From assembly GCF_003334815.1 (NCBI RefSeq), contig NZ_QOWO01000004.1: a DNA stretch of 64,000 bases; one strand, written 5' to 3'. Origin of the DNA: Escherichia coli. GTDB lineage: Bacteria; Pseudomonadota; Gammaproteobacteria; Enterobacterales; Enterobacteriaceae. The notes beneath the pieces were generated by a model. It saw only the letters and a list, made by a program, of their open reading frames with translations. It searched no databases and was not told where the DNA came from. How positions within the stretch are numbered: the stretch's first letter is position 1; the number at the start of each line of letters is the position of its first letter. Made by a program: the position numbers and the translations under genes. Below, piece after piece: positions 29,559 to 33,827 of this stretch.

Positions 29559-29770
29559 CCAAATAACGCTTAGTTATTAATAATTAAGAGTAACCGCCGC
29601 CATTAAAATAGTGGGCACTGACGAGCACTCGTTGTGCTTTCTTTGTTTACCATCTCATACTTATCCTCCTGAACATGTTCATGTGCCAAAATATCTTCTA
29701 ATACTTTCGTGACGCTATCCGGTTTATGACATACACTGATGTAAGATTTTTACTTACAGGCGGGCGTAAA

Positions 29771-30022
29771 ATGGCCAGAACGATGACGGTTGATCTCGGC
29801 GATGAGTTGCGTGAATTTATCGAGTCCTTAATTGAATCCGGCGACTATCGCACCCAAAGCGAAGTGATCCGTGAGTCACTGCGATTACTTCGAGAAAAGC
29901 AAGCAGAGTCTCGCCTGCAAGCGTTACGTGACATGCTCGCAGAAGGGTTGAGTAGTGGTGAAGCTCAGCCGTGGGAAAAGGACGCGTTCTTACGGAAGGT
30001 GAAAGCAGGGATAAGGAAATAA
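29771..30022 (+). CDS. parD: ParD-family antitoxin (ribbon-helix-helix/CopG-like)
   Basis: ORF 29726-30022; likely start ATG 29771 (MARTMTVDLGDELREFIESLIESGDYRTQSEVIRESLRLL...), the characteristic ParD N-terminal motif; stop 2 bp from the parE start. Confidence 0.8.
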   Translation: MARTMTVDLGDELREFIESLIESGDYRTQSEVIRESLRLLREKQAESRLQALRDMLAEGLSSGEAQPWEKDAFLRKVKAGIRK

Positions 30023-30023
30023 T

Positions 30024-30320
30024 GTGCGTATTATTAAACTCATGCCAAAAGCCAATGAGGATTTAGAAGGCATCTGGTATTACAGCTATCACCATTTCGG
30101 CGAACCACAAGCCGACAGATATGTGGAACATCTTTCAGACGTTCTCCAGATTCTGAGTAACAATAATATAGGTACGCCCAGACCTGAATTAGGCGAAGGT
30201 ATTTTTGTTCTTCCTTTTGAACGCCACGTCATTTATTTCCTGCAATCACCAGGGGAAATTATCGTCATTCGTATCCTTAACCAAAACCAGGACGCCACCA
30301 GACATTTACACTGGAGCTAA
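30024..30320 (+). CDS. parE: ParE/RelE-superfamily toxin
   Basis: 98 aa from GTG 30024 (RIIKLMPKANEDLEGIWYY...), with the x-R/K-L-x-P-x-A-x-x-D-L-E-x-I-W signature of ParE toxins; AAGGA RBS 5 nt upstream. Confidence 0.8.
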   Translation: MRIIKLMPKANEDLEGIWYYSYHHFGEPQADRYVEHLSDVLQILSNNNIGTPRPELGEGIFVLPFERHVIYFLQSPGEIIVIRILNQNQDATRHLHWS

Positions 30321-30422: not shown

Positions 30423-31784
30423 ATGTTTAAACCGGAACTCCTTTCCCCGGCGGGAACGCTGAAAAATATGCGTTACGCTTTCGCTTATGGCGCAGATGCT
30501 GTTTATGCGGGCCAGCCGCGTTATTCCCTGCGTGTGCGCAACAACGAATTCAACCACGAAAATCTTCAGCTCGGCATCAATGAAGCCCACGCGCTGGGGA
30601 AAAAGTTTTATGTCGTGGTCAACATTGCACCGCACAACGCCAAGCTGAAAACCTTTATCCGTGACCTGAAACCGGTGGTGGAAATGGGGCCGGATGCGCT
30701 GATTATGTCCGATCCAGGGCTGATTATGCTGGTGCGTGAGCACTTCCCTGAAATGCCGATCCACCTTTCGGTGCAGGCTAACGCCGTGAACTGGGCGACG
30801 GTGAAATTCTGGCAGCAAATGGGCCTGACCCGCGTGATCCTCTCTCGCGAGCTGTCGCTGGAAGAGATTGAAGAGATCCGCAATCAGGTGCCGGATATGG
30901 AGATCGAGATCTTCGTTCACGGCGCGCTGTGCATGGCCTACTCCGGTCGCTGCCTGCTCTCTGGCTATATCAACAAGCGCGACCCGAACCAGGGCACCTG
31001 CACCAACGCCTGCCGCTGGGAGTACAACGTCCAGGAAGGGAAAGAAGATGATGTTGGCAACATCGTACACAAGTACGAGCCGATTCCGGTGCAAAATGTT
31101 GAGCCGACGCTGGGTATCGGCGCACCAACCGACAAAGTGTTTATGATCGAAGAGGCCCAGCGTCCGGGCGAGTATATGACCGCGTTTGAAGATGAGCACG
31201 GCACTTACATCATGAACTCGAAAGATCTGCGCGCCATCGCCCATGTAGAACGCCTGACCAAAATGGGCGTGCATTCGCTGAAAGTCGAAGGTCGTACCAA
31301 ATCTTTCTACTATTGTGCACGCACCGCACAGGTTTACCGCAAAGCTATCGATGACGCCGCTGCGGGAAAACCGTTCGATACCAGCCTGCTGGAAACTCTG
31401 GAAGGTCTGGCGCATCGTGGCTATACCGAAGGTTTCCTGCGTCGTCATACTCACGACGATTATCAGAACTACGAATACGGTTATTCAGTTTCTGACCGCC
31501 AGCAGTTTGTTGGTGAGTTTACCGGTGAGCGCAAGGGGGACCTCGCGGCGGTAGCGGTGAAAAATAAATTCTCCGTTGGCGACAGCCTTGAGCTGATGAC
31601 GCCGCAAGGCAACATTAATTTTACCCTTGAGCACATGGAAAACGCCAAAGGCGAAGCTATGCCGATAGCACCAGGCGATGGTTATACTGTGTGGCTCCCG
31701 GTCCCGCAGGATCTTGAGCTCAATTACGCGCTGCTGATGCGTAATTTCTCCGGGGAAACCACGCGTAATCCCCACGGTAAGTGA
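30423..31784 (+). CDS. yegQ: U32-family peptidase-like protein YegQ
   Basis: 453-aa ORF starting MFKPELLSPAGTLKNMRYAFAYGADAVYAGQPRYSLR, U32 family. Confidence 0.92.
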   Translation: MFKPELLSPAGTLKNMRYAFAYGADAVYAGQPRYSLRVRNNEFNHENLQLGINEAHALGKKFYVVVNIAPHNAKLKTFIRDLKPVVEMGPDALIMSDPGLIMLVREHFPEMPIHLSVQANAVNWATVKFWQQMGLTRVILSRELSLEEIEEIRNQVPDMEIEIFVHGALCMAYSGRCLLSGYINKRDPNQGTCTNACRWEYNVQEGKEDDVGNIVHKYEPIPVQNVEPTLGIGAPTDKVFMIEEAQRPGEYMTAFEDEHGTYIMNSKDLRAIAHVERLTKMGVHSLKVEGRTKSFYYCARTAQVYRKAIDDAAAGKPFDTSLLETLEGLAHRGYTEGFLRRHTHDDYQNYEYGYSVSDRQQFVGEFTGERKGDLAAVAVKNKFSVGDSLELMTPQGNINFTLEHMENAKGEAMPIAPGDGYTVWLPVPQDLELNYALLMRNFSGETTRNPHGK

Positions 31785-31868
31785 TTAATTTCGATTATTT
31801 TTCCCGGATGGAAAATTCTTAGAAACCGATCACATACAGCTGCATTTATTAAGGTTATCATCCGTTTC

Positions 31869-31956
31869 GCTGAAAAACATAACCCATAAAATGCTAGCTG
31901 TACTAGGAACCACCTCCTTAGCCTGTGTAATCTCCCTTACACGGGCTTATTTTTTT
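31869..31956 (+). ncRNA. cyaR: CyaR (RyeE) Hfq-dependent small RNA
   Basis: GCTGAAAAACATAACCCATAAAATGCTAGCTGTAC...CCTTACACGGGCTTATTTTTTT matches recalled CyaR over about 87 nt with one mismatch; ends in an intrinsic terminator. Confidence 0.85.
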
Positions 31957-32114
31957 ATGCATAAGCCCTATCTCTGGTAACCGTCTTCCATTGACCACAT
32001 CGATAGAATCTCCCTTCATAGCACGATGCCTTTCACGTAACGGCATCGTGCTCGCACAGGTTCCGGCTAAGCACAACCAGAACGCGCATGTTTGACGCTT
32101 ACCAAAAAATATTC

Positions 32115-32432
32115 TCACTCTCCACATTTGAATGTCAGACGAGCGACGCCATGTAATCCTGCACCTTCTGTCTTCAGGTCAACTATCTGCATTTTTTTGC
32201 CCTGAGTAACACAGAAATGGGCTGCATCATTTTTTACTATATTTTCTGCACCAGATATTCTGCCCCTGGCTAAAGAAGCTTCGGCTTCGGTGTAGTATTG
32301 GTTATCGAGTTTACGCTGAATATTACTTTTATATGCAAGACCAAATTTACCGATACTTGTCTCATCATTATGCACAGCACAACCAGACATAATAAAAATA
32401 CTAATTAATGATATAGCAGCTATCTTTTTCAT
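32115..32432 (-). CDS. yegR: Small lipoprotein YegR
   Basis: ORF 32115-32492; likely start at ATG 32430-32432 (MKKIAAISLISIFIMSGC, lipobox), 105 aa. Confidence 0.8.
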   Translation of the reverse strand: MKKIAAISLISIFIMSGCAVHNDETSIGKFGLAYKSNIQRKLDNQYYTEAEASLARGRISGAENIVKNDAAHFCVTQGKKMQIVDLKTEGAGLHGVARLTFKCGE

Positions 32433-32846
32433 CTCACCTTCCCCCATTAAATACCAACGACACTCTCTAGTGTTTAAATATAATAATGGCATGATTATTA
32501 TAATTGAATAGGATTATAATAAATGTTCTGTACAACATTTCCTACATAAGTAGGAATTACGGACATTGAGGCCCTTCAGGGTAACTCCATGGGGGCTTTA
32601 ATATATTTGGAATAGTATATTTAAGATGCCACTGTTTGGTTGAATATTAGGCATATGCTCTTTTTTGAAATTTATCGGTGGCAGCCGTTAGTATTCGCTG
32701 TCCCCATTGCAAGCTCCTGGTGGTAACCACTGAATCCTCCATACTTGAACTGACTTTTTATCCTCCGACTTTCATCCTGTTCTGACTCCACCTTTTGTTT
32801 TCTGCTCTACACTATCTACAGACCAATCATAAAGGCACATACGATC

Positions 32847-33746
32847 ATGGCAGAATTTCCCGCCAGCTTACTGATTCTTAATGGCAAAAGTACTGACAAT
32901 CTACCCTTGCGCGAAGCAATTATGCTGTTGCGTGAGGAAGGAATGACGATCCATGTGCGGGTCACCTGGGAGAAAGGCGATGCCGCACGATATGTAGAGG
33001 AGGCCCGGAAGTTGGGCGTCGCAACGGTGATTGCCGGTGGTGGCGATGGCACCATTAATGAAGTTTCTACGGCGTTGATTCAGTGTGAGGGGGATGACAT
33101 ACCCGCGCTGGGAATTTTGCCATTAGGAACCGCCAATGATTTTGCCACCAGTGTAGGAATTCCTGAGGCACTGGATAAGGCGCTGAAACTGGCAATTGCC
33201 GGTAACGCCATTGCGATAGATATGGCGCAGGTCAACAAACAAACCTGTTTTATTAATATGGCGACAGGCGGATTTGGGACGCGTATTACCACAGAAACGC
33301 CGGAAAAATTAAAAGCCGCGCTGGGTGGCGTCTCTTACATCATTCATGGCTTAATGCGCATGGATACTCTGCAACCGGACCGTTGTGAAATCCGCGGTGA
33401 AAACTTTCACTGGCAAGGTGACGCCCTGGTCATTGGTATTGGTAACGGGCGTCAGGCCGGTGGCGGTCAGCAATTGTGTCCGAACGCGTTAATTAACGAT
33501 GGCTTGCTGCAACTGCGCATTTTTACCGGCGATGAAATTCTTCCGGCTCTCGTATCAACCTTAAAATCTGACGAAGATAACCCGAATATTATCGAAGGCG
33601 CTTCGTCGTGGTTTGATATACAAGCCCCACACGAAATCACTTTTAATCTTGATGGCGAACCGTTGAGCGGACAAAACTTTCATATTGAAATACTTCCGGC
33701 GGCGTTGCGTTGTCGATTACCACCAGATTGTCCATTATTGCGTTAA
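32847..33746 (+). CDS. yegS: Lipid kinase YegS (DAG-kinase catalytic domain family)
   Basis: 299 aa; GGDGT nucleotide-binding motif ([13 protein letters not shown]). Confidence 0.93.
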
Positions 33747-33784
33747 TCAAACTATTCTCTCTTGAACCAGGGAGAATCCGAAAT

Positions 33785-33818
33785 GCCGGATGCGGTGTAA
33801 ATACCTTATCCGGCATAC
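33785..33818. repeat. REP element
   Basis: GCCGGATGCGGTGTAAATACCTTATCCGGCAT palindrome between the convergent yegS and gatR ends. Confidence 0.65.
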
Positions 33819-33827
33819 AGAACAATA

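Follow-up and report, generated by a model that had tools for sequence, protein, structure and literature searches.

The gene of the small RNA CyaR marks a place in the Escherichia coli chromosome that is tied to phage P2, and the DNA directly after it is not the same in all strains. Strain K-12 has a cryptic P2-like remnant at this position. In the stretch of E. coli DNA analysed here (64,000 nt of contig NZ_QOWO01000004.1, RefSeq assembly GCF_003334815.1; hereafter the window), cyaR is followed at a short distance by yegR, the gene of a predicted lipoprotein. A first-pass annotation had proposed that this strain carries the unoccupied integration site or has lost the remnant. The locus raises the question of what the DNA next to cyaR is: an empty site, a site emptied secondarily, or the trace of something older. 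Our analysis indicates that positions 31957-32754, a block of 798 bp that includes yegR, are probably the relic of an ancient element with P2-type attachment (att) sites, lying beside a live, unoccupied bacterial attachment site (attB).

The position of the site was established from the cyaR gene itself. The Rfam model RF00112 matched at full length on the + strand (31867-31952) with 101.2 bits, against a gathering score of 47. The gene ends in a terminator made of a stem-loop at 31920-31947 and a T-run that continues to 31955, which was the sole terminator-like site reported by a scan of 31780-32900. The annotated 27-nt core of the P2 phage attachment site (attP) was identical to window positions 31929-31955 (27/27), and the same core was exact in five other Peduovirus genomes. 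In the cyaR terminator, the attB core therefore spans the loop, the 3' stem and the U-tract. It is common for the attP core of a phage to copy the 3' end of a host RNA gene. According to the Rfam match and the neighbouring open reading frames (ORFs), attB lies at the 3' end of cyaR, between yegQ and yegS, at a site that we take to be the P2 'locus I'. The core had been sought within 31940-32114; it was found in the terminator, partly inside that bracket and just to the left of the interval 31957-32114. Between the end of cyaR and the stop codon of yegR lie 159-162 nt, which agrees with the earlier statement that yegR follows within about 160 bp.

Natural lysogens show how this site is used. 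In genomes with a large insert, the alignment with the window stopped at 31955 or started at 31929; the lysogens thus divide exactly at the core ends, and the core is duplicated at both junctions, in agreement with the earlier statement that P2-like phages integrate near cyaR. At the int-side junction the order was int, P' arm, core and then window-type flank. The lysogen junction continues into the flank that is present in the window, and this is therefore the site configuration used by present-day P2-like phages. The attB of the window is thus almost certainly live and currently unoccupied, as far as can be judged from its sequence. Both cyaR as a P2 site and strains in which it is empty are already known: the E. 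coli W genome paper tabulates the site as occupied in W and B, as holding ogr-D' in K-12 and as empty in Crooks (PMC3032704).

Comparison with other genomes showed that the DNA to the right of this core is not part of the ancestral spacer. Species-representative genomes were scanned with a cyaR pattern, which gave a sample of at least 120 Enterobacterales loci (E. fergusonii and Salmonella left out). In nearly all of them yegQ/trhP was found upstream of cyaR, and none encoded a YegR homologue. The adjacency yegQ-cyaR-yegS was the common state across the loci listed, and among these the start of yegS lay no more than 170 nt from the cyaR terminator in 48 of the 118 usable ones. The yegS leader motif CGACTTTCATCCTGTTCTGAC...CTACACT stands directly after cyaR in Enterobacter, Klebsiella, Kosakonia and the Escherichia lineage L087, and in the window CGACTTTCATCCTGTTCTGAC...CTACACT...ATG is found from 32767 onward only. 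L087, although deposited under the name E. coli E69, lies outside E. coli proper as a species representative of its own, with about 95% identity to the window in yegQ. It aligned with the window over 31542-31956 and 32755-35000, with nothing in between. The breakpoints of Escherichia albertii were the same, namely 31956/31957 and 32754/32755. As yegS stands directly after cyaR in the outgroups and in L087, 31957-32754 counts as inserted DNA in comparison with the ancestral arrangement. The inserted block holds the interval 31957-32114, a hairpin, yegR as its only gene and the AT-rich region upstream of yegR. Its GC content is 32-38% across 32200-32700, against 50-58% in yegQ and yegS.

The left end of the block resembles phage DNA. 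Local alignment matched window positions 31969-32003, TATCTCTGGTAACCGTCTTCCATTGACCACATCGA, with the P2 attP sequence TATTTCTGGTCACGTCCACACATTGACCACATCGA (P2 record L005, 755-790), a stretch that is annotated in the P2 record as the 'P arm' bound by Int, between the site of the integration host factor (IHF) and the ogr terminator. The alignment score was 38, a value that none of 2,000 dinucleotide shuffles reached (mean 14.8, maximum 26). At 48 virgin flanks the same comparison gave a mean of 14 and a maximum of 19, against 46-105 at P2-occupied sites of Citrobacter, Buttiauxella and Enterobacter. Of the two arm repeats, one is intact, TTGACCACATCGA (31991-32003) having the P2 sequence without change; decay or deletion has affected the other repeat and the IHF-site region in the window. 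In strain E600003 (L003), 20 further nt survive, and they too match P2 in the region of the IHF site. The window type therefore shows the same fossil at a later stage of decay, and the E600003-type flank may have changed less from what the relic originally was. With this P-arm homology the interval is not free of phage-derived sequence, the finding that had been named as speaking against the earlier proposal.

E600003-like flanks form a minority type in E. coli, with 54 records at 80-90% identity, and the yegR of E600003 is more divergent (about 91% identity over the locus). P2-type P-arm sequence was also seen after cyaR in other loci (L023, L060, L008, L026, L032, L069, L080, L085 and L118; L026 and L118 were disregarded in P-arm alignment A2). 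Among the genomes concerned are Citrobacter, Buttiauxella, Enterobacter and an Escherichia-labelled species representative, and in many cases an ogr-type terminator or an ogr gene accompanies the arm. Their cores are adapted to the local cyaR terminator (ACGCAGGC instead of ACACGGGC). It appears that cyaR is a target of P2-like elements across several Enterobacteriaceae genera and gathers their fossils.

The right end of the block appears to carry the counterpart of this arm. Window positions 32704-32732 (CCATTGCAAGCTCCTGGTGGTAAC...) aligned with the int-side sequence CCGTTGAAAGCCCCTACTGGTGAC... of P2, at a distance from the core that agrees within 1 nt, and with the int-side junction of E. 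albertii at the same distance. The score of this arm alone was reached by 5 to 42 of 2,000 shuffles, depending on the scoring scheme, and by 2 of 1,000 when the core was included. Directly after it, at 32733-32759, stands the best match to the core in the region. Besides the true core, two sites reach 18/27 in the approximately 128,000 positions of the window, and this is one of them. It lies exactly at the right boundary of the block, in register with the 25/27 core of E. albertii and with the ancestral junction of L087. Between yegR and this end, a comparison of 32433-32732 with P2 DNA from int through the P' arm gave no significant alignment beyond the core-proximal 25-30 nt.

A better preserved example of such an arrangement was found in E. 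albertii NBRC 107761. Between cyaR and yegS this strain has an insert of 3.4 kb (L013, 4957-8321) with the breakpoints of the yegR block. The insert contains three ORFs in the layout cdtA-cdtB-cdtC of a cytolethal distending toxin operon; the middle one belongs to the CdtB family NF011787 (4e-109), and the outer two had no NCBIfam match. On the cyaR side there is a core with a P-arm fossil, and on the yegS side a near-perfect P2 int-side sequence with a 25/27 core. The insert looks like a P2-like prophage of whose genes only the toxin cargo is left. The cdt toxin operon is reported to occur on P2-like phages. P2-type elements at cyaR can therefore decay to att-flanked islets that retain cargo alone, and this parallel makes the relic reading of the more eroded yegR block credible. 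The two inserts share both breakpoints, att-type ends and the retention of cargo genes only. They differ in that the att ends of the cdt islet are much better preserved (right core 25/27 versus 18/27) and in that its cargo is a known toxin operon, whereas yegR has no known function and no phage-borne relatives.

The remnant in K-12 provides a second comparison. Directly after cyaR, MG1655 and other K-12 derivatives have about 620 extra bases with ogrK and a truncated D gene (yegZ), a stretch annotated in MG1655 as 'cryptic prophage PR-X', in agreement with the earlier statement on this position. By alignment, the order in K-12 is cyaR with the full core, the ogr-side arm of P2, ogrK, D', a partial core of 20 nt (CTACACGGGCTTATTTTTTT) and the window-type flank. 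PR-X and the yegR block share the site and the orientation, and both show a full core, a P arm, an internal deletion, a partial second core and a common flank. In PR-X phage genes can still be recognised, and the P arm, with the IHF-site region, is almost intact; the window has neither such genes nor such an arm. The yegR block is far more decayed than PR-X. Nearly all E. coli have it, K-12 among them, with PR-X nested to its left in that strain. In the whole 64-kb window, tblastn with P2 Ogr and the C-termini of D and Int gave no match at E <= 1, while the same queries at the K-12 locus, used as a control, gave 1e-49 (Ogr) and 3e-43; nor was the D'/partial-core junction of K-12 found in the window by alignment.

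The frequencies of these states were counted among 5,426 complete E. coli genomes. An empty-type junction, defined as a 127-nt probe across the core being contiguous, was present in 4,198 (77%). The exact D'/partial-core junction of K-12 was present in 358 (6.6%), and the examples among the matches listed were K-12 derivatives. A larger insert is indicated in about 860 genomes (16%), by difference from the 4,564 that were contiguous over a 1.3-kb probe; this last number is consistent with the sum of the empty type and the K-12 type. The sampled rows of the larger-insert class break exactly at the core. The window strain was a 100% match to E. coli strain 52F4 over the 1.3 kb; with the 127-nt probe, 52F4 was the sole 100% match among the matches listed.

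The following history would account for these features. As established for P2, an integrase of this type would bring the attP core together with 31929-31955 for strand exchange; attP brings the same 27 bp, and cyaR is therefore rebuilt with a complete terminator after integration. An old P2-type element would have entered at the cyaR core in the orientation of present-day P2 prophages. This early prophage would then have lost its genes, its interior being lost or replaced except for the AT-rich yegR and the region upstream of it. The left end would have kept a decayed P arm (31969-32003), and the right end the int-side attP sequence with a decayed core (32704-32759). The left core would have stayed perfect because it is part of cyaR and is under selection for the function of cyaR. 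The right core, having no function, would have drifted, as did the arms, so that the islet became immobilised. Later phages would have kept using the intact core, and one of them would have decayed in K-12 to PR-X. We infer that one integration gave rise to the block and also brought in yegR.

Several observations weigh against this history. No phage gene or pseudogene survives in the block, and a tblastn search of it for an Int remnant gave nothing above noise. A nucleotide search with the block (interior 32053-32760) found no phage similarity except in two records that contain host flank, ON470606.1 and AY639599.1. A genuine phage with a yegR-like gene was not found either: tblastn against 50,697 phage records returned the same two records. 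As no phage-borne yegR is seen, a later entry of the gene into the block is possible. The evidence at the right end is moderate when taken piece by piece, with a core of 18/27 and p values of about 0.002-0.02 for the arm. Finally, a single virgin-type Escherichia genome was sampled, L087, and a secondary loss of the block in that lineage is possible.

With respect to yegR itself, the encoded protein belongs to Pfam PF27694. Its homologues are essentially confined to E. coli and Shigella; the few others, at 47-51% identity, are found in an island rich in insertion sequences (IS) or next to mug, which are non-phage contexts. YegR also matched PHROG 21109 at full length and had 80 matches in IMG/VR (L135-L214). 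All 80 were at least 96% identical and lay no farther than about 2.3 kb from a contig end, most of them right at the first base. Their position and identity point to host-flank overshoot, and yegR as phage-borne cargo on the strength of these records was rejected. 'Phage TP' (AY639599.1) resembles K-12-type chromosomal DNA, with yegQ, ogr and part of yegR.

Four other explanations were weighed against a decayed P2-type prophage. The first is that the block was never a phage: it would have been a small islet or satellite bearing P2-type att sites, mobilised in trans by an integrase of the P2 type. The survival of att-type ends alone, with no structural or regulatory phage genes, is in line with this, as are the IS-rich or unrelated contexts of the yegR homologues elsewhere, which are those expected of a mobile accessory gene. 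Nothing, however, separates such an islet from a degraded full prophage, and both PR-X, with ogr and D', and the cdt islet, with P2-type att ends only, are consistent with degraded prophages. We regard this explanation as unlikely.

A plain, unoccupied attB would be the simplest alternative: 31957-32114 would be an ordinary host spacer with the hairpin of the yegR 3' end, and its likeness to the P2 arm would be coincidental. The block contains no phage genes, the flank is found in about 77% of E. coli genomes and the hairpin stands at the position expected for a yegR 3' end, all of which would suit such a spacer. The P-arm alignment, though, scores far above anything seen among the shuffles or the virgin sites. 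Moreover, other genera and L087 have neither the interval nor yegR at the orthologous site, and the block ends in core-like sequence in register with the ancestral junction. Coincidence thus appears quite improbable.

Loss of a K-12-type ogrK-D' remnant, the other half of the earlier proposal, would require recombination between the full and the partial core, which would regenerate an empty-looking junction. The remnant in K-12 is indeed flanked by the full core and the 20-nt CTACACGGGCTTATTTTTTT, and such a deletion would be scarless. Against it stand the restriction of the K-12 junction to 358 of the 5,426 genomes, with K-12 derivatives as the listed examples, and the presence of the empty type in 4,198 diverse genomes. 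In addition, the window is only about 98% identical to K-12 over 1.3 kb and therefore belongs to a different lineage, and nothing in its sequence calls for such a history. An unoccupied site fits better, being more parsimonious for the window strain than a lost remnant, and the loss is very improbable. Of the proposal 'unoccupied or lost remnant', it stands that the K-12 remnant is absent and that the core is intact and unoccupied; the site is empty of any recent prophage, yet not pristine.

The reverse transfer, in which P2-like phages would have taken the P arm and the core from DNA downstream of E. coli cyaR by imprecise excision, would fit the habit of attP cores to copy host RNA gene 3' ends, the core here being the cyaR terminator, but it is barely credible, since in the ancestral arrangement it is the yegS leader that lies downstream of cyaR, the P arm stands beside cyaR in P2-like elements of Citrobacter, Buttiauxella and Enterobacter that have no yegR block, and the right end, with its int-side sequence and second core, would be left unexplained.

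The features of the locus are collected in Table 1.

Table 1. Coordinates of the features at the cyaR-yegS locus of the window.
Feature	Positions	Strand	Remarks
yegQ/trhP	30423-31784	+	453-aa ORF; annotated trhP/yegQ in matching E. coli records
cyaR, including terminator	31867-31955	+	Rfam RF00112
P2 attB core AATCTCCCTTACACGGGCTTATTTTTT	31929-31955	+	Loop, 3' stem and U-tract of the cyaR terminator
Block including yegR, 798 bp	31957-32754		Absent from the ancestral cyaR-yegS spacer
Probable P-arm fossil of P2 attP (ogr-side Int arm-binding region)	31969-32003	+	Local alignment to P2
Second copy of AATCTCCCTT (first 10 nt of the core, loop of the cyaR terminator)	32007-32016	+	Direct repeat, 78 nt downstream of the first
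Hairpin	32020-32052		11-bp perfect stem, 11-nt loop, 62-95 nt downstream of the yegR stop
yegR	32115-32432	-	105-aa ORF; YegR in identical and near-identical E. coli records
Probable int-side, core-proximal attP fossil (P2-annotated Cox-binding region)	32704-32732	+	Aligns to P2 (L005 670-694)
Probable decayed second att core AATCCTCCATACTTGAACTGACTTTTT	32733-32759	+	18/27, best core match in the region
yegS leader/promoter region, then yegS (32847-33746)	32760-33746	+	Ancestral flank; synteny

The inverted repeat that had been noted between cyaR and yegR at about 32020-32050 was recovered with arms of 14 nt at 32020-32033 and 32039-32052, which contain one mismatch and a perfect stretch of 11 bp (AGCACGATGCC / GGCATCGTGCT). 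Folded as RNA, the hairpin has -24.6 kcal/mol, with z = -4.8 relative to shuffles. It was rejected as an intrinsic (Rho-independent) terminator: there is no T-run on either strand, and it was not reported by the scan. It stands just beyond the P arm, at the position that the ogr terminator has in P2 and its relatives, and no sequence homology supporting a shared origin with that terminator was found. In the four strains compared, the loop varies and there is one stem mismatch, with no compensatory change. Our best guess is that the hairpin serves as a 3'-end protective or processing structure of the yegR transcript.

Further candidates in the interval did not hold. The second copy of AATCTCCCTT matches the whole core at 15/27 positions without gaps, and the 10-mer differs in K-12 and E600003; as a nested att core it was rejected on account of the 15/27 match and the lack of conservation among strains, and it may be due to chance. 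The right end of phage 186 showed a weak similarity to 32062-32110 (78% over 49 nt, E = 0.9), which was also taken as chance. Between the hairpin region and the yegR stop (window 32110/32111), about 170 extra bases are present in EC32, in E600003 and in the host flank of the phage record 720R8 (positions 1681-1850 in L002, L003 and L006). One record annotates an ORF of about 41 aa there. A phage similarity search with this strain-specific 170-bp segment found none.

Some differences were also observed around the locus. At 31904, within cyaR and directly upstream of the conserved CCACCUCCUU region, the base of the window is T, as against C in K-12, EC32 and E600003 (GTACTAGG versus GTACCAGG); T is the Rfam consensus base. 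Downstream, gatR is intact in the window (33828-34607, 259 aa), and it is split by IS3E in MG1655. Upstream, between yegP and yegQ, 29726-30320 holds a gene for a ParD-family antitoxin (TIGR02606, 2e-25) and an adjacent toxin-sized ORF of 98 aa. The alignments to E. albertii and to another Escherichia-labelled genome begin only at about 30332, so this ParD-type pair looks like an accessory toxin-antitoxin insertion.

The attB of the window can be compared with the primary P2 site at cyaR (ryeE). The core is identical without any difference, its location in the terminator is the same, and natural P2-like prophages use the window-type site. The new point is that the right flank is itself derived from an attP arm. 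The 'bacterial' partner is therefore, in structure, the cyaR-side junction of an older relic. The yegR block also resembles islets of the cis-mobilizable element (CIME) kind and 'grounded' prophages, which have att-derived repeats at their ends, have lost the recombinase and have kept accessory DNA of atypical composition. Unlike these, it has one att copy that is perfect inside a functional small-RNA gene, and its left junction therefore still works as attB for present-day phages. The annotation of MG1655 does not record the yegR block as a relic; it ends at PR-X and omits yegR. In the searchable literature on cyaR, P2, yegR and yegQ we found no statement of yegR as a P2 relic, subscription literature being outside our reach.

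A stronger proposal is that the preferred target of P2 is the left junction of an ancient P2-type relic whose fossil arm may still bind Int, and that yegR is domesticated cargo. We consider this proposal, taken as a whole, rather unlikely. If it were true, the half-site TTGACCACATCGA may affect which site is preferred or how integration is balanced against excision. In a lysogen, the int-side junction would then consist of P' arm, core and P-arm-like sequence, resembling attP, and yegR may be, for example, a surface lipoprotein formerly used against competing phages.

Taken together, the yegR block looks like a degraded prophage with a retained accessory gene, an ordinary genome fossil. An origin is thereby offered for the uncharacterised K-12 'y-gene' yegR, as the content of a relic bounded by att sites. 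The overshoot of prophage boundaries that places yegR in a PHROG family and in 80 'viral' contigs of IMG/VR is a contamination problem. The virgin site, the full prophage, PR-X, the cdt islet of E. albertii and the yegR islet form a natural decay series, in which one could study how prophages turn into islets with cargo only while the target gene keeps one att copy perfect. 'Empty' integration sites can thus be stacked fossils, which bears on how prophage boundaries are drawn.

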